Assembly: GCA_963835065.1 (NCBI GenBank)
Contig: CAWIEK010000060.1
Location: 132,293 to 196,292, forward strand
Source: an uncultured Chthonomonadaceae bacterium
GTDB taxonomy: Bacteria > Armatimonadota > Chthonomonadetes > Chthonomonadales > Chthonomonadaceae
Reading direction: 5' to 3'
DNA length: 64,000 nucleotides
Position numbers and translations under genes: made by a program. A model generated the notes under the pieces. It saw only the letters and a list, made by a program, of their open reading frames with translations, was not told the origin of the DNA and did not search any database. This document shows positions 44,295-59,295 of the stretch, one piece after another (the first letter of the stretch is position 1; every line of letters starts with the position of its first letter).

Positions 44295-46325
44295 TCACCT
44301 CACCTCCACGCTCGCCTGCTCCGTCGTCGTTGCCAGCGGCAGGATGTTTTCGGGGTCGAGGGTCAGGCGGGTGGGGCGGGACACGCTTGCGATTTGGAAA
44401 TGCGTTTGTGAACCCCCAACGTCAACATTTTGGCGCTGTGGTTTGTCGTCGCCGCTCTGGACGCTCAAGGGCAGGCGTAAACGGTAGGGTTCGCCTTCCT
44501 GCACGATGTCGCCTTCCACCATGTAGCCGTTTCCACTCTCCCTGCTGACGACATTTGCCAGCCGGACACGGGGCAAACCCTTGCGCTGTGTCCACTGGTC
44601 GAAGAACCAACCGTAATCCTGCCCGGTGGCTTTGTTCACAGCGCGGGCAAATTCCGGCCATTCCGCTGGTTCGCCTTTGGGATGGTCGGCAAGAAACGTT
44701 TTGATGCTTGCCCGCATCCTTTCCAGCCCGATCTGCTCCTCCAACACGCGCAGCACAAACGCGCCCTTGCTATAGCCGATGGCGTTCTGGCGATTGTCGC
44801 TGGTATCGTGGGCGTCTTGCAGGGTTGCCGCGTCGAACGCATTGCCGAATTGACGGCGTTTGCCCACAGACGTGTGCGACTCATCCATGCTTGCCTGTTT
44901 CGCCATCTGTGGGTTCATCCGCGCGAACAATCCCGATGAATACTCCGCAAATGACTCATTCCACATAGAGCGCGTGTAGGGACACGGCACAAGCCCGCCC
45001 CACCACGTATGCGACAATTCGTGCGGAATGGTGGACGGCATCGTTCCCGCTCCGAATGTTGCGAACGAGTACGCTTCCAGCGCGCCGCCGAACGGCCCGC
45101 GCGTTTCCACCACTTCATAGTGCGTGTAAGGAAAGGGAGCGAACTGCGTATCATAAAACGCGAGGGATTTTTCCAGCACATCCAAACTGTTTTTCGCAAG
45201 GCGAGTGTTTGGCGTGAGCAGATAAACGGAAAGCGTTCGTCCCTCCGCCGTTTTGCGCGGCGTAATCGTGTACGGCCCCATATCCAGCGTAAAAAAGCAG
45301 TTGGGCAAGTCGTTGCGGTACGTGACGGTCAGGGAGCCATCCGCATGGCGCTTTTCCCGCGTTTTCTCGCCCTGCGCAATGGGAGTCCAATCGGGCGGGG
45401 CTGTCGCGGTCACGGTGGACGTGGCGGGCAGGCGGGCGATATGCGGATACCAGTAGGAGTCGAGCGTGGCTTCCTGCGTGTTGATGTAGTCCGATTCCTG
45501 ATGCAGGACGCGCCCTTTGTACGCCAATGTCAGCGAAAACGAATGGTTTCCATCGGCGACAGGTGGTACAACCGCAATCACGCCGCCCGCCTGCGCATAA
45601 GAGACCGGCGCGTTTTTGCCTGTCAGGGCGCTGACCTTGAAATCATCAGACAGGCGCAGCAGGCAGGCAGGCAGCAGTGGCGTTCCCGTTGCCTCGACGC
45701 GAATCGTATCTTTAATGGTAGCCGTATGCTGCGCGGGGTCAATGGAAACGGTTAAATCGTGGTCACGAACGCGATAGCCCCCAGTTTCCGCTTCGGGTAT
45801 TTCCGCGCCAAGTTTCCAGCCCGTGCCGTCCGCGCCCGGTTCCAGCCGGTGTATATGGTCGCCGTCGCTTTCACAGGTATGCCAAGCATGAAACACGGCA
45901 AGGTATAATAGAGTGGGAGTCGGCGCGACGTTCGCGGAAGCATCCTGCGAATGGGAAGACGGCAAACGCAAGGCAAGCACTTCCCCCGTCCAGTTCTTTG
46001 TCGTGCGTTCCTGCATCCAGCCGAAAGATGGCAAGGCTTCCGGCGTCACCAGAGGTTTGAGCGCGTCTGTATCCCTGGCATTAACAGCCTGTGTCGCCTG
46101 CCGCAGCAGCCCGGTCAATGTGCCCGGAGCCTCCGCCTGTCCATGCGCGTTGTGACGCGGCGCAGCCTTACGAGTGTGATGTGAAGGCGTTGTTGATCTT
46201 GTCGTATCGGCATGAAGCCAAACACTTGTGCCGCCAAGCAGCGCAAGTACGCCCGCTCCAAGCCAACAGGAGGCGACCTTTCTTGTGCGTACCCGGTTCA
46301 ACCCGTTTCTATATGTGTGATTCAC
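44295..46325 (-). CDS. Secreted M1-family zinc aminopeptidase
   Basis: GGALEAY exopeptidase-type motif, HELSHTWWG, WNESFAEY, YSKGA; N-term hydrophobic segment. Confidence 0.9.
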   Translation of the reverse strand: MNHTYRNGLNRVRTRKVASCWLGAGVLALLGGTSVWLHADTTRSTTPSHHTRKAAPRHNAHGQAEAPGTLTGLLRQATQAVNARDTDALKPLVTPEALPSFGWMQERTTKNWTGEVLALRLPSSHSQDASANVAPTPTLLYLAVFHAWHTCESDGDHIHRLEPGADGTGWKLGAEIPEAETGGYRVRDHDLTVSIDPAQHTATIKDTIRVEATGTPLLPACLLRLSDDFKVSALTGKNAPVSYAQAGGVIAVVPPVADGNHSFSLTLAYKGRVLHQESDYINTQEATLDSYWYPHIARLPATSTVTATAPPDWTPIAQGEKTREKRHADGSLTVTYRNDLPNCFFTLDMGPYTITPRKTAEGRTLSVYLLTPNTRLAKNSLDVLEKSLAFYDTQFAPFPYTHYEVVETRGPFGGALEAYSFATFGAGTMPSTIPHELSHTWWGGLVPCPYTRSMWNESFAEYSSGLFARMNPQMAKQASMDESHTSVGKRRQFGNAFDAATLQDAHDTSDNRQNAIGYSKGAFVLRVLEEQIGLERMRASIKTFLADHPKGEPAEWPEFARAVNKATGQDYGWFFDQWTQRKGLPRVRLANVVSRESGNGYMVEGDIVQEGEPYRLRLPLSVQSGDDKPQRQNVDVGGSQTHFQIASVSRPTRLTLDPENILPLATTTEQASVEVR

Positions 46326-46338
46326 TCTTAATCCTTTA

Positions 46339-46474
46339 GGTGTTCAGGTATTCAGGTATCGGGTGTTCAGATGTTCGGGTGTTCAGGAAATACAAAAGTA
46401 CCATAGTTTACTTTAGCATGACAAGGGCATCATCCTGAATACCTAAATACCCGAACACCGAACACCGAACACCG
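46339..46474. repeat. Palindromic cassette of GGT[GA]TTC[AG] repeats between divergent genes
   Basis: Left arm 46339-46388; reverse-complement arm 46433-46474. Confidence 0.85.
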
Positions 46475-46544
46475 ACATGGCGCGTTCTTTCCTCGTTATT
46501 TACGCGGCGAAGGGCGTTCCCGTTGCCGTTCAGGAGTCTTCCCG

Positions 46545-47879
46545 ATGAACGTACCTCATGCCTGGCCGCGCTGTCCCGAAACGTCCGCGTTCTTTGAACG
46601 GCAGTTTTCGCGAGTTTGCCGCTTCCAATCCATTTGTGGAACACTTGGCCGCGCAGTTTCAGCAGGCCGGCGTCCACATTCTCACCCTTGTAGATCACTG
46701 GCGGCTTCCGGCTTCTGAGGAACTCGCCAGTGAACTCCCGCCTGCGGCCTTGTGGAAACTAATCTTGACGGCGAATCCGTATGGGAACATCCATACGCCC
46801 GGTTTCCCCGCGTCCGTTTGTCTAAAAGCCAGAACATTACCCGCCTCGCTCTTCTGGTTGAGCGTGTAGATCAATTCCTTGATTTCTCATTTGTTGCTGA
46901 CCACCCGGTCCAAGGTGATCTATACGGTATCTATCGAGAGAGCATCCTCCCACAGCCTTTTGGGGGATTGGCTGTTGTTGAGCGATGCGGCTACTGCAGG
47001 GTTTAACCTACAGCAGGTAAGCGAAAATAACAAGATTTCTTTGGCGGGTAAAACTATGCGGGAGCGGAAGCGTTCCGGCACGGAAGCATCGGTACTCGCC
47101 CAAACACAATATATGGTTGAAACTTTTGTTGCCGATCTCGGCTGCGCTATAACAACCGATATTTCTTTCATGTGGAACGCCTCGTTTACATGAGCCGTAA
47201 TGCCGCCGCCTACTGGCAGTACCAAGAGCAGCAGAAAAAACTCGGCATCGGATGGGCCAATCACGACCACCACACGTACCGCAGCTCCCGCGATCGTTTC
47301 CGCGCCCTGATGCAGTTGTTTTTGACGCTTGGTTTTGAAATGCGCGAACGTTTTTATGCGGGCGCGGAAGCCGGATGGGGCGCACAGATTTTGGAGCATC
47401 CCGTCAGCCGCGTGGTGATTTTCGCCGACGTGGATATGTCGCCGGAAGAATTGGACATTGATTTTGCCAATCAAGACTTGCCGCCGCGCAAAGAGTTGGG
47501 AACCATTGGCCTATGGTGTGAGTTGCACGGCAGCAGCATCGCGCAGGCCGGGATGCATCACCTGGAAGCCGAGTTCGACTACAAGCAGGTACAGGCGAAC
47601 CTTGAAAACGCCGGCTTTAGCGTAATGCCGCCGTTTACCGACCTGCCTATGCTGAAGCAAGCGTTTACCCAACCCGAACTCTGGCCCGTCGCCCCCGAAC
47701 GCCTGCAAAAATTGCTCGCTGCCGGCAGTATCACGCCCGAACAGGCCGCTAAATTTCAGACTCAGGGCGCAGCCGGCAGCCATCTGGAAATCCTCCAGCG
47801 CTGGGAAGGCTTCAAAGGCTTCAACAAAACCGGCGTCAGCGACATCATCCGCGCTACCGACGCGAGAAATGAGAATTAA
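46545..47879 (+). CDS. Uncharacterised VOC-superfamily Fe(II)/2-oxoacid dioxygenase-like protein (HPPD/HglS-like motifs; N-half frameshifted)
   Basis: AGGAG RBS before ATG 46545; C-half has NHDHHTYRS, GMHHLE, LKQAFT, HLEILQRWEGFKGF. Confidence 0.6.
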
Positions 47880-48316
47880 CCACCCGCTGCGCTAGAGACA
47901 CAGAGGCACAGAGGGGGAGACAAGGAGAAGAGGAGACAAGGAGATAGGGAAGCGCGAAAGACACGAAACAAACTAAGAGCCTATCCCAATTGGCCGGGTA
48001 TTGGAAATACCCGGCAGGAAAGTGCAAGCGTCCTGCGGACGCGAATTCTCGCCTATTGGGATAGGCTCTAAAAGAAAACGAAAAAATAGACAGGATTAAA
48101 AGGATTTTTAGGATTAAACAGGATTACACAAGAGAAGGACTAATTCTCTGCTATTCCTATCCGTGTCTATCCGCTTTATCCGTTTCATCCGTGGTTTGGC
48201 CTTTTGTATTTTCCTTTTTTCGTCTTGGTTCGTGTATTTCGCGGTTCCCCTCTCCTCTCCTCCTCGCATTGGCCTTTCCTCTGTGCCTCTGTGTCTCTAG
48301 CCGTAGGCGGGTGGTT
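47878..48316. repeat. Multi-layer nested palindromic repeat cassette
   Basis: Outer CACAGAG arms (47878-47914 / 48278-48316), purine/pyrimidine arms, CGCGAAA.ACACGAA arms, inner AGGATT and ATCCG repeats. Confidence 0.85.
47977..48068. mobile_element. 92-bp MITE inside the cassette
   Basis: Perfect 14-bp TIR GAGCCTATCCCAAT, flanked on both sides by TAA. Confidence 0.75.
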
Positions 48317-48337
48317 CGTTTATATGGAGGCAGTATT

Positions 48338-49842
48338 ATGCACGAGGGCAGCAGTAATTACATCGGCGGCAAGTGGCAGGGCGCGGGGGCGGGGCAGACG
48401 TTTGAGTCGCGCAATCCGGCCAATGTTGCGGAAGTGATTGGCGTATACGCGAGGTCGCAGGCGGAAGATGTTGACGCGGCGGTACGAGCGGCGCGGGCTG
48501 CGTATCCGCAGTGGAAGCGGACCCCGGCTCCCATGCGGGGGGCGATATTAACGCGCATGGGGCGGCTGATGGAAGCGCGGAAGGAAGAACTGGCCGCGCA
48601 GATGGTACGGGAAATGGGCAAAGTGCTGATCGAAGCGCGGGGGGATGTGCAGGAAGCCATTGATATGGCGTTTTACATGGCCGCGTTCGGACGGTTGCCC
48701 AATGGCAGCCTGGTTCCGAGCGAGCGCGAAGATGTGTACTGCGCGGCGCAGCGCGTTCCCGTCGGCGTGGTCGGCCTGATTACGCCCTGGAATTTTCCGA
48801 TTGCTATCCCAAGCTGGAAAATGTTTCCCGCGCTGATGGCGGGCAATACGATTGTATTCAAGCCTGCCGAGGATACGCCCGGACTGGCGGTTACGTTTGT
48901 GGAACTGCTGATTGAAGCCGGATTGCCGCCCGGATCGTCAATCTGGTAACAGGTTATGGCAACGAGGCCGGGGCCGCATTAGTGGAGCATACCGACGTTT
49001 CCACCATTTCGTTCACGGGTTCTACCCCGGTGGGCAGGCAGATCGCGGGACGGTGCGGGCATTTGATGAAGCGCGTCAGCTGCGAGTTGGGCGGCAAAAA
49101 CGCGATTGTTGTTTTGGACGACGCGAACTTAGAACTGGCGCTGAAAGGCGCGTTGTGGAGCGCGTTCGGCACGGCGGGGCAGCGCTGCACGGCGGCAAGC
49201 CGTTTAATTGTCCATAAAGATGTAATGCGAAAGTTCCGACAGGAACTTGTAGACCGTACCAACGCGCTGCGCATGGGCGCGGGCCTTGACCCGCAGGCCG
49301 AAATCGGCCCGGTAGTAAATCGGCAGCAGCTTACCCGCATCCATAGTTATGTAGAAATCGGCAGGGCGGAAGGGGCGCAAGTCTTAACGGGCGGACGCAT
49401 ACTGGATGAGGGAGAATTTGCGCAGGGCTGTTTTTACGCGCCGACGGTGTTGGACGACGTGACCTTGAACATGCGCGTGGCGCAGGAAGAGATTTTCGGG
49501 CCGGTGACGGCTCTGATCGAAGTGGGCAGCCTGGACGAAGCCTTGCGGGCGGCGAACGCCACGCAGTATGGCCTCTCCTTATCGCTGTACACGCGCGACG
49601 TAAACCGCGCGTTTCGCGCCATGAACGAACTGGACGCGGGCATTGTTTACATCAATCTGCCGACTAGCGGAGCCGAAATTCAGCTTCCGTTCGGCGGCAT
49701 CAAACAGACCGGCAACGGCCACAGGGAAGCGGGGTGGATGGCGATGGATTACTGCACCGAGTGGAAGTCTATGTACGTGAACTACAGCGAAAGCGCCGAG
49801 TTGGTGCGCGCGCAAATTGACGTTCAGCAATGGGACGGATAA
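48338..49842 (+). CDS. NAD(P)-dependent aldehyde dehydrogenase (frameshift near 48933)
   Basis: ITPWNFP, FTGS, ELGGKN, FGTAGQRCTA, EEIFGP, PFGG. Confidence 0.95.
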
Positions 49843-49867
49843 GTCCGCAGAAAGGGATGGAGCAGAA

Positions 49868-51469
49868 ATGCAGCGCGAGGAACACGTTTGGCAGGAACAG
49901 TTTGGACAAGAACAGGTTGAGCAGGAACGCGCGGAAGCAGGCAACAAACCGGCTGCGCAAGAAAACGAACAGGCTGCGCAAAGCAGCGAAGCCGCGTTAA
50001 AGCGGAAGGAACGCGCGGAAACGGTGAGCGAGTACACCGAAACGGGAAACGGACACGATCCGGCGTGGAACGAGCAGGTGTTGGCGTGGAACGACGCAGG
50101 CTTGCTGGCTGAAGTGGTCGGCTATGAAACGGACAGGGTTGCGCTGGAAACGCGGGGCGCGACGGTAACAACCTATCAGGGCGAGCAGTACATAGATTTT
50201 ACGGGCGGCATCGCGGTTCACGCCTGCGGGCACAATCACCCCGAAGTGGTACGCGCCATTCAGGAGCAGGCGGCGCAAACCCTGCACACGTCCGACATTT
50301 TCCGCCACACGCCCCAATTGGAATTGGCGGCATGGATGCGCGATCTGTTCCAAACCGTCTTACCCGGTTCCTCCGATGGTTCCGGTTCCTCCCACGCGGC
50401 GAATTCTTCCGCGTTACCCGATTCTGCCGCACTTTCCGGCTCACCTGAATCCTCCGATTCCAAGTGGTCGTTTTTGTTCATGAACAGCGGCAGCGAGTCC
50501 ATTGATTCCGCCGCGAAATTGGCGATGAAAGCAACGGGACGCCACAAGTTTGTTGCTTTGGAAGGCGCGTTTCATGGCCGGACGCTGTTCGCAAGCGCCC
50601 TTTCGCGCTCCAAAACCCTGCACTGGAACGCCTACGAAGATTTTCTGGCCCCGCTTCGCGCCAATATCTTCCACGCCCCCGCCCCCAATTGCCAATCCTG
50701 CCAACTGCGCAAGCCTGCCGAGCAATGCTGCGCGAACGGGCTGGAACAGATTCTACAGCAGCATGGACATGAAATCGCCGCCGTCTTTCTGGAAGCGCAG
50801 CAGGGCGAGGGAGGCTACCGTCCCATGTCGGCCATCGCCGCGCAGAAAATCCGCGCCCTGACCCGCGAATATGGCATATTGCTGATTGTGGACGAGATTC
50901 AATCCGGGTGGGGCAGAACGGGCAAGTGGTTCGGCTTCGAGCATTTGGGAATTGAGCCGGATGTGGTTGTCTTCGGCAAAGCGGTTGGCGGCGGACTGCC
51001 ACTTGCCGGCATTGCCGCCCGTCAGGAACTCATGGCAACATGGCAGCCGGGAGAACACGGCACAACCTTCGGCGGCAATCCCCTTGCCTGCGCCGCAGGG
51101 CTGGCCGCGTTAAAGATAATCGCGCGGGAAAAACTCGTGGAACGCGCGGCCTGTTTGGGCGGGGAAATCACCGCCCGATTGCGCCCTCTCATCGGACACT
51201 GCGGCGTGGTAGATGTGCGTGGCAACGGCCTGATGATCGCCATCGAATTGCGCGACAGCAGCGGCAACCCGGATTACGCCCGCTGCGAAGCCGTAAAAGC
51301 ACATGCCCGCGCCAATGGCCTGTTGCTGCTGACGTGCGGCGCCAAAATCGGCAATCCCCACACCGACAACGCCGCTCTCCGCCTCATCCCGCCGCTCAAC
51401 ACGCCGGAAGATATCGCGCATCAAGCCGTTGACATCCTGCTCAACGCCCTGCAAAAAACTGGTCTGTAA
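49868..51469 (+). CDS. Class-III PLP aminotransferase
   Basis: NSGSE, FHGRT, DEIQSGWGRTG, FGKAVGGG, HGTTFGGNP; start uncertain. Confidence 0.93.
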   Translation: MQREEHVWQEQFGQEQVEQERAEAGNKPAAQENEQAAQSSEAALKRKERAETVSEYTETGNGHDPAWNEQVLAWNDAGLLAEVVGYETDRVALETRGATVTTYQGEQYIDFTGGIAVHACGHNHPEVVRAIQEQAAQTLHTSDIFRHTPQLELAAWMRDLFQTVLPGSSDGSGSSHAANSSALPDSAALSGSPESSDSKWSFLFMNSGSESIDSAAKLAMKATGRHKFVALEGAFHGRTLFASALSRSKTLHWNAYEDFLAPLRANIFHAPAPNCQSCQLRKPAEQCCANGLEQILQQHGHEIAAVFLEAQQGEGGYRPMSAIAAQKIRALTREYGILLIVDEIQSGWGRTGKWFGFEHLGIEPDVVVFGKAVGGGLPLAGIAARQELMATWQPGEHGTTFGGNPLACAAGLAALKIIAREKLVERAACLGGEITARLRPLIGHCGVVDVRGNGLMIAIELRDSSGNPDYARCEAVKAHARANGLLLLTCGAKIGNPHTDNAALRLIPPLNTPEDIAHQAVDILLNALQKTGL

Positions 51470-51476
51470 AAAGCAA

Positions 51477-51677
51477 TTTGCACCACAGAGGCACAGATAC
51501 ACAGAGGTTTCACAGAGAGGAGGAGAAGAGGAGAAATTGACAGGATTAACAGGATTTTAAGGATTAAACAGGATTACTCAAGGAGAGAACAGGTATGTGG
51601 TTACTCCCTCTTCTTCTTTTCTCCTTCTCTTCTTTTCTCTGTGAAACCTCTGTGTCTCTGTAGCTCTGTGGTGCAAA
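51477..51677. repeat. Nested palindromic repeat cassette between convergent genes
   Basis: TTTGCACCACAGAG..CACAGAG (51477-51519) pairs with 51636-51677; inner GACAGGATTAA block nearly identical to 48089-48127. Confidence 0.85.
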
Positions 51678-51678
51678 C

Positions 51679-52263
51679 TTATTTGTCTTTATTTCCGGTG
51701 GCGCTGTGGCTAAGGACTTCGGCGCGTTGGGAAGCGGGGAAGTCTTCAAGGTGGCCGTCCGCGAAGCCGAACAGGAGCGGGCCGGGATCGTCGACGGGAA
51801 CAAGGGATTGCAGATTGTCGCAGGCTCCGGGCGTGGGAGCGGTGGACTCGAAGAACAAAATGGCGCGTTCGGGGTGCGGCAGCGTGTTCAGGGAGGCATT
51901 GGCAAGGGCGCGGTTCATGGCGATGCTGCGGCCTGCGCCGCCGGGCGTCGGCGGCAGGGTCAGGGGCAGCGCGCCCGTTTCGGTTTGTAAATCCTGCACC
52001 CAATGCTCGGCAGTCGGCAGCTTGCCCTCGTGGGCGGCAGCGTACAGCATGGCGGCATGAGTCAGGGAGCCGATACGCTCTTTCAGCGCGTCGTCATGGG
52101 CGTCCACCCGGCGCGTCCGGTCATGCGTGAACGCGGAACCCAGCAGCAGCAGCGAAGCGGGCAAGGTGACAAACAGCCCGAACAGGCGAATCCAGCGTTT
52201 TCGTTTCGATATGGTCATAACTTCAAAATACGTGTTCGGAATAACCGTTTCATTCCACTTCAT
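51679..52263 (-). CDS. Membrane-anchored hypothetical protein with DUF1559 / H-X9-DG-like motifs
   Basis: One TM; AMLYAAAHEGKLP, IAMN..L, ILFFES, FGFADGH. Confidence 0.6.
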   Translation of the reverse strand: MKWNETVIPNTYFEVMTISKRKRWIRLFGLFVTLPASLLLLGSAFTHDRTRRVDAHDDALKERIGSLTHAAMLYAAAHEGKLPTAEHWVQDLQTETGALPLTLPPTPGGAGRSIAMNRALANASLNTLPHPERAILFFESTAPTPGACDNLQSLVPVDDPGPLLFGFADGHLEDFPASQRAEVLSHSATGNKDK

Positions 52264-54667: not shown

Positions 54668-54976
54668 TCATACGGAGGCAGCCGCGACTTCCTGAATCGG
54701 CGGCGTTGCCGAAGTTTGCGCCACGCTTTCGGCTAACATGCGCTCGAACGTTTCCCGATCCGCAATGCCCCAATTATCTACAGTGACTTCCGCCATCAGC
54801 AAATCAATGGGCGGAACCACTTCATCGGCCTTGAACAATGGCAGCAAAATCACGCCGCCCTGCTGTTCATGCGGCTCAAAGCGTAGGTGCGAATTGGCAA
54901 CAACACACCTCACGTAACCAAGTTTGAGCAGGACGCGCTCTAGCGTTGCCATTGTTATTGTGTTAAGACTCATCAT
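54668..54976 (-). CDS. Small HicA-like protein
   Basis: 102 aa; LERVLLKLGY..NSHLRF resembles the HicA GSH motif; overlaps the DUF4365 stop. Confidence 0.5.
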   Translation of the reverse strand: MMSLNTITMATLERVLLKLGYVRCVVANSHLRFEPHEQQGGVILLPLFKADEVVPPIDLLMAEVTVDNWGIADRETFERMLAESVAQTSATPPIQEVAAASV

Positions 54977-55469
54977 GCACCACCTGTTGAGTTTGCTGAA
55001 ACACGCGATTTTGGAAGCGAGCAAACGACTGCATCGCGTTTTGATTGACAATATTGTTCACAGGAATTCGCACAGTGACAGTTCGCCCTACCTGTGACAG
55101 ATCAAAACCGGGCTGACGCTGAAAATAGGCTTGAATGTACAGCCAGTAGGCAACGTCCGCCTGAGCATCATAGATGATTAACATCAGGGGCGGCACTTGC
55201 AGAATCCAGAACTCTAAATCCGATGAACTAACCGTAAACAAAATACTGGAGCCGTCAGCAGTCAAGCGTAGACTGTCAGTTGCCTTCAACTGAAACAACA
55301 CCGCGCCATCCTCAATCTCACCTTGATTATTGTACGTTGTCAGTACCAGATCAATGCCATAATCATCCAGTTTGCGAGCAACCGTGTAACCTGCCAACAG
55401 CGCGTGACGTTCTACATGGTTGACGCTTAAATCCGCGATAATGTGTTCACGAGTTCGACGTTTACGCAT
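54963..55469 (-). CDS. DUF4365 PD-(D/E)xK nuclease-fold protein
   Basis: DDYGIDL..FQLKAT..P.MLIIYD..AYW. Confidence 0.8.
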   Translation of the reverse strand: MRKRRTREHIIADLSVNHVERHALLAGYTVARKLDDYGIDLVLTTYNNQGEIEDGAVLFQLKATDSLRLTADGSSILFTVSSSDLEFWILQVPPLMLIIYDAQADVAYWLYIQAYFQRQPGFDLSQVGRTVTVRIPVNNIVNQNAMQSFARFQNRVFQQTQQVVHDES

Positions 55470-55470
55470 T

Positions 55471-56790
55471 TTACCTGTCTTGTTCTCCAAAAGCAAATTG
55501 CCGCGCTAGAGCGGTTCGGACACGTTGCGCCTGTGCGCCCGTTGTTTGCAGGGTCGCTTGTTCCAATAGGGTCAGCAAGACAGGACGCAGGATCACTTGC
55601 GACTGCCGCGTACCGGCAAGCGGGGCGCGAATATCTATGCGCTGTTCCGAGGCTTCGGCATTGGCAGTCGGGTAAAGAATCACGGCTCCCTGTGCGCAGC
55701 CGCCGAGCAAAGCGTACATTGTCAGTTGGTACAGCATCGCGGGCGGCAGGGACTTTTCCCACAGGTCACGATACTTCGCGTCCAGAATAGCGACGGTCTT
55801 GCCCTGTTCGAGAACGATGTAATCCGGGCGCAAGGTGGGCGGTGGATGATTTTGCGGATTGTATGCCTTGTTGTACGCAAGAACATTGGAAAGTCGCGTT
55901 TGGTCGCGCACAACATAACCGGGCAGATTTTCACGCAGAAACTTCGACAGCAGAGCCTCAAAAAAGTGGTTCATGTCGAACAGAAAACCTCGCAACGGCA
56001 GCGCAGGTTCGTCACTATCCAGATGAACGCCCGCGCCTGCCAGCAGCAGTTCGATAAGCGTAAAAGTAGGTTGGTACGCCCTTGTCAGGCGCGTGGTTTG
56101 GGCGCGGAGGCGGGCAAACGTTTCGCGGTTCAGGCGAACGGGCGTCACGTCCTCGCGCAGCAATCCGGCAAGGCGATGCAGGCGCGTTTTCAAGTGCGCA
56201 GACAACGCGGCATTTGCGCCCCACATCAGGCCACTGAGCAGCACTTGATTGGGCAGCGTATTTTGCGAACGGGGATAATGGATGCAGGGAAGCGTGGCGC
56301 GTCCCGTACTCCCGGCAAGCGCCAGTTTGCGCATATCAAGGCTGCCGCGCAGGGTTGCCAACTCTTCCTCGGAACGGCGGTACTGACGCTGCAAGCCCCG
56401 CGCCAGCAGTTCCGCCGCTTCGAGTGCCAATTGATGCAGCAGCAGGTCTTGAAACGCTTCGGGTTCGCTGTCAAAAGTGGTATCCGCAAACAAATCGAGA
56501 TTGCGCAAATCGTAAGCGTAGCGCAGCAGGCGCAGCAGCGAAGGGGCGGGTATCTTGGGGCGAATGGTGACGGTGACATTGCCGATCTGAATTCTGCCAA
56601 CGTGGGCATACGCCTGCAGTCTCAAGCCTTCGCGCAGTTCCGTTACGGTTAAAATCTCGGAATGTGCCAGTCGCTCCACAAGGGCGCGTGTGCCGGCATC
56701 CGTCACAAGCCGCGCATCGCGCAGAGTTGGTTCCGTTTGCGGCGTTCGGATTTCCCACTCCGCAAGCCGAATGTGGATCGGGAAATTCAT
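55471..56790 (-). CDS. mcrC: McrC-family restriction nuclease subunit
   Basis: HVGRIQ, RPKI, FLFDMNHFFE, LRPD, LDAKY, LYQL. Confidence 0.9.
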   Translation of the reverse strand: MNFPIHIRLAEWEIRTPQTEPTLRDARLVTDAGTRALVERLAHSEILTVTELREGLRLQAYAHVGRIQIGNVTVTIRPKIPAPSLLRLLRYAYDLRNLDLFADTTFDSEPEAFQDLLLHQLALEAAELLARGLQRQYRRSEEELATLRGSLDMRKLALAGSTGRATLPCIHYPRSQNTLPNQVLLSGLMWGANAALSAHLKTRLHRLAGLLREDVTPVRLNRETFARLRAQTTRLTRAYQPTFTLIELLLAGAGVHLDSDEPALPLRGFLFDMNHFFEALLSKFLRENLPGYVVRDQTRLSNVLAYNKAYNPQNHPPPTLRPDYIVLEQGKTVAILDAKYRDLWEKSLPPAMLYQLTMYALLGGCAQGAVILYPTANAEASEQRIDIRAPLAGTRQSQVILRPVLLTLLEQATLQTTGAQAQRVRTALARQFAFGEQDR

Positions 56791-59295
56791 TCGCTGTTGT
56801 CCGTCGCCTCCGTATCGTCCTCGGCGTCATTATCCAGTTCCTGCGCCTCGTTTTGCGCTTCCGCTTCCAGCATTACGGCCTGTGAGGTAGCGGTAATTTC
56901 GGGACACGGGGCCAGCAGCGCGGTAATCAACTCATCCTGTCGCGCCGGTTCAAACAACTCGTCGCGGACTTGCTGTTTCTGTCCATCCACAAGACTGCTT
57001 CCCAATATCTTTTCCAGCGCGGCGTAATCCTCGTAGCAGTATTCTTCCAGCAGGGGAACAATGTCTTCGCGCAACACGCGGCTTAAATGCGCAAAGTCGC
57101 GTATGGGACGCCCATTTTCCAGAAAGTAGGAATGTCCGATTTGCAGGTTGCGGGCATCGCGCCCTACGTGTTCGCAAATGCGGGCGTTCAGCGCGTCCAG
57201 CCATGCGGCAAGGGGAATACCCTCAATCAGCGTTCGTGCCAGCGTGGAACTGTCGGGCATAAGTTCGATGAAGCCGAAGCGTCGGCGCAGGGCGGCGTCC
57301 AGCAGCGCGATAGAGCGATCCGCCGTATTCATGGTTCCGATCACGTACACGTTTGTCGGCACGGCAAATGACGTTTTGCTCAACGGCAGCACAACCGTTT
57401 TGCCTCGCTTGTTGCTTTCCAGCAGGGTGAGCAGTTCCCCGAAAATACGCGGAATGTCGCCCCGGTTGATTTCATCCACAAGCAGGTAATAGTTGCGGTT
57501 CGGGTTCGCGCTTGCGTCTTCACACAAGCGTTTTGAAAATGCCGTTTCGCAGTTCAAACAGCATTTGCCCATCCTGCGCATGAGGCCGATAGCCTTCCAG
57601 AAAATCCTCATACCCATACGCCGGATGAAAACAGCACCAGCGCACAAGTCCCCCATTAGCACTATCACCATTGACAACGGTACGTTCCTCTGCCGTAAGC
57701 GCCTCATACGCTTTGCCAAACGCAGAACGCGCCGCCAACTCACGAGCCGCAATTTCCGCCCAATACGTTTTGCCCGTTCCCGGCGGCCCATACAAAATCA
57801 CCTGCCCCTTGCGTTCCAACACGGCTTCAATTCGTGCAGGAATCCCACTCAACGGCGACACAAAAACCGGGATTGCTATTTTAGGTGTATTGGGAGGTGT
57901 CAGAGGCGGAGGCGTTCTACCGAAAATATGCTCTTCCAATTCAAGTTGATTGTCGTACTTGCGCAAGTTGTAAACGGTTGTCCGCAGACCTTCATGGGCA
58001 ACTCAATTCGTGCAGGTACGCCGCTTAATGCTTGTAAAGGTGCCAGTTGTGGTTCAGTCTGTAATGAAGGATTCATCTGTACTGGAGAAGCAATTGGAAG
58101 TAAAGCCGAGTCTTTTCTATAAATTACCTCCTCGGTCGCCAATCTGTTTTCGTAACGACGCAGTTCAGTTAGAAAGCCTGTTGAATTGTCCTTCCGAACA
58201 GGCAAAACCCACTCTTCAAGAGAAAGCCACTCAACAAGCCGTTGCTGTGAATAGTTAATATCGTCAACGAATTGGTAGTCGCTGACAATCCGCCCAACTC
58301 CTAATACATAATGTTCAGAACACGCGACGATGAATCTTGGCTCTGTATAGCAGCCACAAAATTATATAATTGGTTTGCATCAGCGTGGAATACTTCATTC
58401 ATGTCATGATAAAGTTCATCAAAATACTCTTTTATGATGCTTTTGAGGTAGTTAGAACTCCGGTGGTTGGTTAAATCGCCTATTTTATGTAATTGGAGCG
58501 CAATAAAGCCACTACTGCGCATCTTTTGCCATCTCTGATCATCATAGCCAATGAAAACACGCCAGTAGCGATATGGACGCCCATTGCGCTGGTTCAGCAC
58601 TTCCTTAAACATATAGAGGGGCATTACCAACTCATCTGCTAACCTAACATAATGTCCAGTTGCAAGATAGCGTCCTTTTTCTGATGGAGGTAATTGAAGT
58701 ATTCGCAGCAAATGATGATGTTGGTAGTAGGTATTGTGGAAGCCGTCTATTTTGTCCGGGTAGATCAGGCTGAAGTATTTATGCGCCCAAGCAAAATCCT
58801 GTACATTAGGCGCGATGTGTGCTAACTCTTGCTGTAGATACTCGTAATCTATTTGCCGCGCATATGAGGAAAACTTTCCAGTAGTTCACATGCGGACAGA
58901 AGTTGATTACGGCGTTCACGCGCCATCTGAACGGCTTGCTGTTCTGCAAGCGTTTCTTGTTTTGCAGGGCTACCGGTAATCCATTCGCCCGTCGCGCTAC
59001 GGCGGTATAGACCAAATTTCAAAGCGCTACCGCCAGCAATGCTGCCGAAGCGCGTACTCGGAAATTCGGCATCGTTCTTAAACTCTAGCCAGTACACCAT
59101 GCTGTCATGGTTGGAACTGTCGAACATGGTATTCAGCAGTTCCGTACCGTCAAGGTTGCTCAACCGTTCTGGCCCGAACCGTTGCCGAAAAGCCTTGTAA
59201 TACGTGTCCAGTTTGGACTGAGACAGCAGTTTGCCCTCCGCCTCCATTTTGTCGCGCAGTTCACGAAGTTCTTCGGCAATTTTCGGATGCAGCAT
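56787..59295 (-). CDS. mcrB: McrB-family AAA+ GTPase with a large N-terminal recognition region (several frameshifts)
   Basis: AGGAG RBS; ILYGPPGTGKT, FHPAYGYEDF, DEINRG, GTMNTADRS, ALRRRF. Confidence 0.9.

Follow-up and report, generated by a model that had tools for sequence, protein, structure and literature searches.

The window analysed here is a 64,000-nucleotide stretch from an uncultured Chthonomonadaceae bacterium, and it carries three consecutive genes on one strand, the first of which encodes a predicted HglS-type Fe(II) 2-oxoadipate dioxygenase/decarboxylase. This gene, hereafter gene 1 (46545..47879, + strand), extends from an ATG at 46545 to a TAA at 47879 and, according to a frameshift-aware alignment to its orthologues, encodes a protein of about 444 aa. 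It is followed by an aldehyde dehydrogenase (ALDH) gene (48338..49842, + strand; ~501 aa, PF00171) and by a gene for a class III pyridoxal phosphate aminotransferase (49868..51469, + strand; PF00202, E 3e-102) whose start, judging from its context, is probably the ATG at 49868. A preliminary description of this DNA had proposed this gene order, which the two Pfam matches confirm, and had listed five motifs in gene 1. All five were found in the expected order within a single open frame: DHH..R as DHHTYR (47265-47282, comprising the putative metal His and the Arg four residues after it, His+4), GMHHL (47550-47564), LKQAFT (47652-47669), HLEILQR (47781-47801) and EGFKGF (47805-47822). They lie in the predicted catalytic C-terminal domain (47187..47879, + strand; delimited by motifs, conservation and the structural match to 6W1K given below), which begins with YxxRNxA (47187-47207). 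When the five-motif pattern was run against the six frames of the genome, gene 1 was the single match among 11,726 open segments of at least 180 aa; since the pattern was derived from gene 1 itself, this match shows specificity only. The N-terminal half (46545..47140, + strand; placed by profile comparison and column counts) carries the motifs DHW (46693-46701), EHP, VERxG (46977-46994) and appears to be a degenerate HglS-like VOC unit.

Intact orthologues of gene 1 are ~445 aa long, and all structural work used one of them from the same genus, P0001, which has the same sequence as a record labelled Chthonomonadaceae and shares 86% identity with the window's gene 1 over the 3' 235 residues. 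The P0001 models (pLDDT 92.5 and pTM 0.91 for the full protein, pLDDT 93.3 for the C-domain) were each compared with known structures by re-scoring Foldseek's top 1,000 chains with VIA-align. The P0001 model proved to have a VOC fold and not some other one, and the C-terminal domain of gene 1 is predicted to be of this fold. The best VIA match of the C-domain was rice hydroxyglutarate synthase (HGLS) with 2-oxoadipate, 6W1K (Z 16.8, root-mean-square deviation (rmsd) 3.3, 210 residues), followed by 3LHO (Z 15.4), 3IUZ (15.1), HMS (13.3), HPPD (12.4) and P. putida HglS (12.4). The full model gave the identical top three, all DUF1338 structures; indeed, 3LHO, 3IUZ and 2RJB appear as DUF1338 proteins in 10.1101/2020.01.30.927905. 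The HGLS structures align only to residues ~200-446 of P0001, and 3LHO had the best Foldseek TM-score (0.59) among the matches listed for the full model.

In HglS, as the same source reports, the triad is His70/His226/Glu294, and Arg74 (His+4) binds the distal carboxylate of 2-oxoadipate and sets specificity; the R74A variant was inactive, and HglS showed no activity on six other 2-oxoacids (10.1101/2020.01.30.927905). Among 86 diverse members of the gene-1 family (mean column identity 33%), the triad His244/His341/Glu417 (P0001 numbering) was kept in 80, Arg248 (His+4) also in 80, and the triad together with Arg248 in 76, each triad residue of P0001 being at or on a predicted strand. The His-His-Glu triad proposed earlier is thus conserved in sequence, and, going by the fold and the motif register, it may surround one metal site. 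YxxRN stands 26 residues ahead of the metal His in P0001 and 6W1K alike. When the C-half was compared with a plant-type HGLS profile (120 proteins), the two aligned end-to-end over 204 columns with their motifs in register (C-half/HGLS: DHHTYR/DHIAFR, HHL/NHF, LKQAFT/LEQSST, HLEILQR/YYEFARR and FKGF/FTGF, including the C-terminal tail FxGF..I...T), in a match that is in itself insignificant (prob 3%, E 0.013). The N-half matched the plant-type HGLS profile (prob 84%, E 7e-6) and, weakly, the C-half (prob 24%, E 8e-4), and on the strength of these two matches the protein appears to have arisen by tandem duplication, its first copy having degenerated. In this copy the first His is kept in 63 of the 86 members and there is no conserved His+4 Arg; judged by its residues, the N-terminal half is likely to be non-catalytic. 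HglS has a single central VOC domain, and gene 1 departs from this architecture since its N half is a second, degenerate unit. We therefore place gene 1, which would work like HglS, outside the HglS family, because it fails both the single-domain architecture and the family hidden Markov models (HMMs).

The genomic neighbourhoods of homologues were surveyed in the best 80 of 227 loci. The ALDH of the window's type was found downstream in 31 of the 80, and in 20 of those 31 the aminotransferase was present as well; these 31 loci are kin and count as about one event. Within the bacterium's own family, all 18 aminotransferase orthologues and 17 ALDH orthologues, unlinked ones included, belong to genomes with gene 1. 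The survey of homologue neighbourhoods for lysine genes that had been proposed earlier gave a positive answer for some homologues in other phyla, the genes concerned being curated lysine-catabolic ones. Two Chthoniobacterales loci have L-lysine 6-transaminase (LAT) and piperideine-6-carboxylate dehydrogenase (P6CDH) genes, both above cut-off, directly upstream. All five Verrucomicrobiota carriers (one of them the genome chosen as centre) have an above-cut-off P6CDH within 1.5 kb, accompanied by LAT in one and by a saccharopine-dehydrogenase-like gene in two, and 5 of 16 Planctomycetota carriers have an adjacent P6CDH plus a saccharopine-dehydrogenase-like gene, one of these P6CDH genes being cut by the contig end. 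A Parachlamydiales copy adjoins a YdiJ-like gene (425 bits, below cut-off). These lysine-gene contexts differ in order and orientation, and a quick tree (75 of 99 rows, 24 close Armatimonadota-side rows having been dropped) puts them in separate clades. DUF1338 genes themselves are reported beside lysine aminotransferases and ALDHs in 10.1101/450254.

In the host genome LysA is present and no LysX was found above cut-off, so that lysine would be made by the LysA route, and no close match to LAT, P6CDH or a saccharopine-dehydrogenase-like protein was found. For these reasons the aminotransferase/ALDH pair would be the evident way in, provided that 2-oxoadipate is the substrate of gene 1. The preliminary description had read the pair as lysine enzymes: neither belongs to the LAT or P6CDH families, and what argues for a lysine role is their position, from which they are likely to take the places of lysine 6-transaminase and aminoadipate-semialdehyde dehydrogenase without being orthologous to them. 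The ALDH motif GTAGQRCT (49168-49191), cited in favour of the latter activity, is present; it is not diagnostic, and the P6CDH model scores low. We take the CDD subfamily with this motif to be grouped near ALDH7. In a tree the aminotransferase forms its own clade, with branch and motifs separate from LAT; its best NCBIfam model is PRK08117 (353 of 574 bits). It also has an acidic N-terminal extension (49868-50060) and a Ser-rich insertion (50365-50460), both longer than in relatives.

Taken together, the predicted fold, the triad, the Arg and the neighbours support the proposal of a divergent family that would perform the HglS reaction or a related 2-oxoacid decarboxylating oxygenation. We favour, with moderate confidence, gene 1 being a remote two-domain HglS-type 2-oxoadipate dioxygenase/decarboxylase fed from L-lysine by the aminotransferase and the ALDH; that it acts on 2-oxoadipate, whatever the entry route, we consider quite probable. 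Motifs, conservation, gene order, co-occurrence, neighbours and frameshift positions are observed, and the fold is predicted; in the following scheme the binding of the metal, all substrates, what the ALDH and the aminotransferase do and the two unlinked steps are inferred. The class III aminotransferase would take the epsilon-amino group off L-lysine, the ALDH would oxidise aminoadipate semialdehyde to 2-aminoadipate, and an unlinked aminotransferase would convert the latter into 2-oxoadipate. In gene 1, the iron at His244/His341/Glu417 would hold the 2-oxo-acid end and Arg248 the distal carboxylate, and decarboxylation plus hydroxylation with Fe(II) and O2 would yield D-2-hydroxyglutarate and CO2. 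Finally, a GlcD-like oxidase dependent on flavin adenine dinucleotide (FAD) and encoded elsewhere may turn D-2-hydroxyglutarate into 2-oxoglutarate; two GlcD-like oxidases on contig C12 are candidates for this last step.

Several results weigh against this reading, and we give them here and in the next two paragraphs with the alternatives they bear on. PF07063 (DUF1338) gave no match at E<=10 in three of three intact members, and the NCBIfam HglS models (NF049974 and NF050083) gave none at E<=1 in eight of eight; the insignificant profile score of the C-half points the same way. Foldseek, ranked by E-value, put HPPD and HMS first for the full model (HPPD E 2.5e-9); for the C-domain the leading matches were HMS, methylmalonyl-CoA epimerase and HPPD, which speaks against a clean assignment. 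Of the two enzymes to which gene 1 had been likened, HglS in its plant-type form is closer by VIA than HPPD, though HPPD ranks higher in Foldseek E-value. The Foldseek ranking, the two VOC-like halves and the similar length would suit an HPPD/HMS-like enzyme acting on an aromatic 2-oxoacid, which is nevertheless extremely unlikely: the full-length HPPD/HMS matches have an rmsd of about 20 (18-22) and TM-scores of 0.2-0.4, values that depend on the predicted domain arrangement, their VIA Z is lower, and no tyrosine-pathway gene occurs among the annotated neighbours, of which only a selection was annotated. In addition, a true HPPD lies elsewhere in the genome (contig C46), where it is the only gene found by TIGR01263, above cut-off, and its profile comparison with the gene-1 family gave prob 1%. 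VOC folds carry many chemistries, and methylmalonyl-CoA epimerases rank high in the C-domain Foldseek search, as might be expected if gene 1 were a non-oxygenase VOC metalloenzyme (epimerase, isomerase or lyase) on a lysine-pathway intermediate. However, epimerases and glyoxalases reach a VIA Z of 9-10 over ~130 residues, compared with 15-17 over ~200 for HGLS, and the C-terminal tail keeps the HGLS register; we regard this alternative as very unlikely.

The other adverse results concern the route by which 2-oxoadipate would be formed and used. The aminotransferase does not have LAT (TIGR03251, cut-off 520.8) among its best 25 families, the 25th of which scores 206 bits, and reaches 262 bits with the 2-aminoadipate transaminase model NF049976 (cut-off 650). 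The two ALDH pieces score 133 and 211 bits with the P6CDH model NF050084 (cut-off 730); the ALDH is below every NCBIfam cut-off shown, its intact orthologue having GucD as best model (530 of 770), and is nearest to alpha-ketoglutarate-semialdehyde dehydrogenase models. No clear 2-aminoadipate transaminase was found in the genome, nor YdiJ above cut-off, and one ALDH orthologue occurs in a genome of another family without gene 1 (G038). Among 25 non-Armatimonadota loci, 17 have none of the tested lysine neighbours, and P6CDH at E<=1e-150 does not track gene 1, being found in 4 of 16 Planctomycetota carriers compared with 85 of 201 genomes overall. Some of these points would fit a different entry, in which the aminotransferase is itself a 2-aminoadipate transaminase or the pair turns 6-amino-2-oxohexanoate via 2-oxoadipate semialdehyde into 2-oxoadipate. 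The ALDH models it resembles act on a 2-oxo-acid semialdehyde, a separate 2-aminoadipate transaminase was not identified, and P. putida PP_4108, whose NCBIfam model matches the window's aminotransferase, is a 2-aminoadipate transaminase according to 10.1101/450254. On the other hand, this match is far below cut-off, and the same slots hold LAT and P6CDH in other phyla. Moreover, at one locus (L064) an ALDH of this type has as its partner a PRK05769 aminotransferase that is nearest to 7VNO, which we take to be PH1423. PH1423 and TK2101 are listed as acting on ornithine and lysine in PMC9986279. We judge such a different entry to be unlikely.

If the substrate rather than the entry differed, gene 1 would carry out HglS-type chemistry on another aliphatic 2-oxo-diacid, and the cluster would degrade another omega-amino compound such as ornithine, gamma-aminobutyrate (GABA) or 5-aminovalerate. 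Indeed, GABA transaminases head the PDB matches of the aminotransferase, lysine genes are absent beside many homologues, and the specificity Arg is replaced in 9 of 242 matched members (by Asp in four), which means that substrate drift exists; contexts of DUF1338 beyond lysine are also reported in 10.1101/450254. Yet neither gene 1 of the window nor its clade has lost the Arg, the lysine enzymes are the only pathway-specific neighbours above curated cut-offs, the loop PGEHGT of the aminotransferase resembles ArgD (PGDHGS) and is unlike that of GABA transaminases (PGGLGG), and HglS was inactive on the six other 2-oxoacids mentioned above. Another substrate is, in our opinion, rather improbable, slightly more so than a different entry.

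The reading frames of the window are interrupted: aligned to intact orthologues by a frameshift-aware method, gene 1 shows four frameshifts in its 5' half (near 46605, 46738, 46995 and 47161) and the ALDH one (near 48934). At 47161 the T that is missing from the window is present in a public contig that shows 0 mismatches to it over 176 bases, and contigs of 90-95% relatives are without the shifts at 46605, 46738 and 48934, the missing ALDH base being present there; this comparison covered 46605, 46738, 47161 and 48934, with 46817-47108, and hence the shift at 46995, lying outside the covered stretches. The frameshifts are probably assembly errors. That they are real and the cluster a pseudogene in this strain, which would be independent of the function of the family, is quite improbable, even though the local density is unusually high, as four shifts in 560 bp far exceed the roughly estimated background, in which 11 of 79 genes show a frame change (the method undercounts, and some shifts may sit in the queries), and the 46995 shift lay where no comparison contig reached. 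Against a pseudogene stand the T restored at 47161 by an otherwise identical contig, the relatives without three of the other shifts, and an aligned reading that is free of in-frame stops and 72% identical in its 5' part to an intact orthologue. A further indel pair guessed near 47180 was ruled out, as the identical public contig shows none.

Compared with known systems, the gene-1 protein is most like plant/Shewanella-type HGLS (rice FLO7, 6W1K; 3LHO; DUF1338/PF07063), with which it shares the predicted C-domain fold, the His-His-Glu order, the His+4 Arg, the YxxRN helix, LxQxxT, ExxxR and FxGF in register and, in some genomes, lysine-related neighbours. It differs by an identity of 17-19% in the structural alignment, by having no HMM match and by its size, ~445 aa including a degenerate additional copy at the N-terminus, as against ~265 aa for bacterial plant-type HGLS; its activity is predicted. 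With P. putida HglS (PP_5260, 6W1G/6W1H) and E. coli YdcJ it has in common the VOC core (Z 12-13) and an H70/R74-type motif, and in the case of YdcJ with YdiJ one homologue likewise adjoins a YdiJ-like dehydrogenase gene; however, identity is 13-14%, the length of gene 1 comes from a duplicated unit and not from insertions, and the entry genes differ from those of the pipecolate route. HPPD and HMS share with gene 1 two VOC-like halves, a C-terminal triad in 2-His-1-Glu order and the top Foldseek E-values, whereas their halves are arranged differently, their domain Z is lower and gene 1 has the HglS Arg. LAT and P6CDH are of the same enzyme classes as the window's aminotransferase and ALDH and occupy the slots beside Verrucomicrobiota and Planctomycetota homologues; the window's enzymes are only 23-39% identical to them, and their equivalence would follow from position only. 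Only HPPD, HMS and HglS are described as two-substrate 2-oxoacid oxygenases in 10.1101/2020.01.30.927905. A broader proposal, that gene 1 represents one more structural class of such oxygenases, a tandem-duplicated HglS linking single-domain HGLS to two-domain HPPD/HMS, within a three-enzyme lysine route that escapes curated models and with an Asp-for-Arg branch, in one case joined to an FAD-linked 2-hydroxyacid dehydrogenase, that carries out the oxidative decarboxylation of a new, probably basic 2-oxoacid, is doubtful as a whole. If the function proposed for gene 1 is right, more than 5,000 "hypothetical proteins" would gain a function, lysine catabolism via D-2-hydroxyglutarate would reach Armatimonadota and parts of Verrucomicrobiota, Planctomycetota and Chlamydiota, the searched carriers being without PF07063, and two more non-orthologous enzymes would become testable, one transferring the epsilon-amino group of lysine and one oxidising a semialdehyde. 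This would fill an annotation and evolutionary gap and would be no new kind of biology, since the chemistry itself is already known.

The family is large and unnamed. P0001 matches 5,144 of 7,998 candidate proteins scored, a profile search gave 787 representatives at 50% clustering, and among the 120 members listed those with a name are called "hypothetical protein". Intact members had no Pfam match (three of three) and no NCBIfam family (eight of eight), neither the C-half nor two family profiles had a significant match among PDB sequences, and the ESM Atlas search returned unnamed clusters only. In the open-access literature no paper on the family was found; subscription papers were largely outside this search, and the DUF1338 sequence tables of the bioRxiv supplement could include members. 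Gene 1 occurs in 20 of 24 relatives of the same family (three of the four genomes without it are 67-75% complete) and in none of the 16 genomes from elsewhere in the order; in samples of 201 genomes each, the family is carried by 16 Planctomycetota and 5 Verrucomicrobiota, and it is also present in chlamydial and acidobacterial records. One member, P0396, comes from a record labelled Thermoplasmatota archaeon. No genome had both PF07063 and the gene-1 family (15 against 16 of 201 in Planctomycetota, 3 against 5 of 201 in Verrucomicrobiota), and in the bacterium's own order the family is found in 21 of 41 genomes and PF07063 in 0 of 41. This mutual exclusion was not counted as evidence, because the overlap expected by chance is ~1.2 genomes in Planctomycetota and 0.07 in Verrucomicrobiota. 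The Planctomycetota PF07063 proteins (L127-L136) fall into three dissimilar groups: one long and HglS-like, one plant-like and one of a DHGALRT type.

Asp instead of the specificity Arg (DHHTYD) was found in P0161, P0197, P0211 and P0391, and this branch possibly has a different, basic 2-oxoacid as substrate; in P0391 the protein is joined to a FAD-linked GlcD-like oxidase. P0391, which lacks the Arg, is also one of three longer singletons, together with P0392, which is frameshifted into its neighbour, and P0390, which may be a read-through. Their partners are two PRK05769 aminotransferases and one GlcD-like oxidase, and they were counted as adjacency only, not as proven fusions. A class I aminotransferase, PRK06836, adjoins the gene in 5 of the 16 Planctomycetota copies, all of one clade (L151, L154-L157); it is a candidate 2-aminoadipate transaminase and was set aside as support since it concerns a single clade. 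PF02913 was uninformative as a pathway marker: all five of the five carrier genomes have it, but so do 10 of 14 controls.

Upstream of gene 1 lies a divergent M1-family peptidase gene (44295..46325, - strand; PF01433), whose cluster turns up in the vicinity of gene-1 homologues at 14 of 80 loci; it might supply amino acids. The region between gene 1 and the ALDH (47880..48320) consists of dispersed repeats (~20-166 blastn matches per position against the genome) and is no part of the enzyme system. Such repeats also occur at 46341-46470 (up to ~65 genome matches) and 51485-51678 (up to ~130). Sub-threshold Rfam matches to miRNA hairpins at 51485-51678 suggest a palindromic element, and no riboswitch or RNA family was above the Rfam threshold in 46200-51800. 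Further downstream, the open reading frames at 54963-57966 (- strand), with a small one upstream, carry GPPGTGKT and MNTAD motifs and are presumably a McrBC-type restriction pair whose McrB-like part is split over two frames. Upstream of the peptidase, a membrane protein gene is followed by three glycosyltransferase-like open reading frames, the last matching PF00534 (38900-44212, + strand); this is probably a polysaccharide locus unrelated to the cluster.

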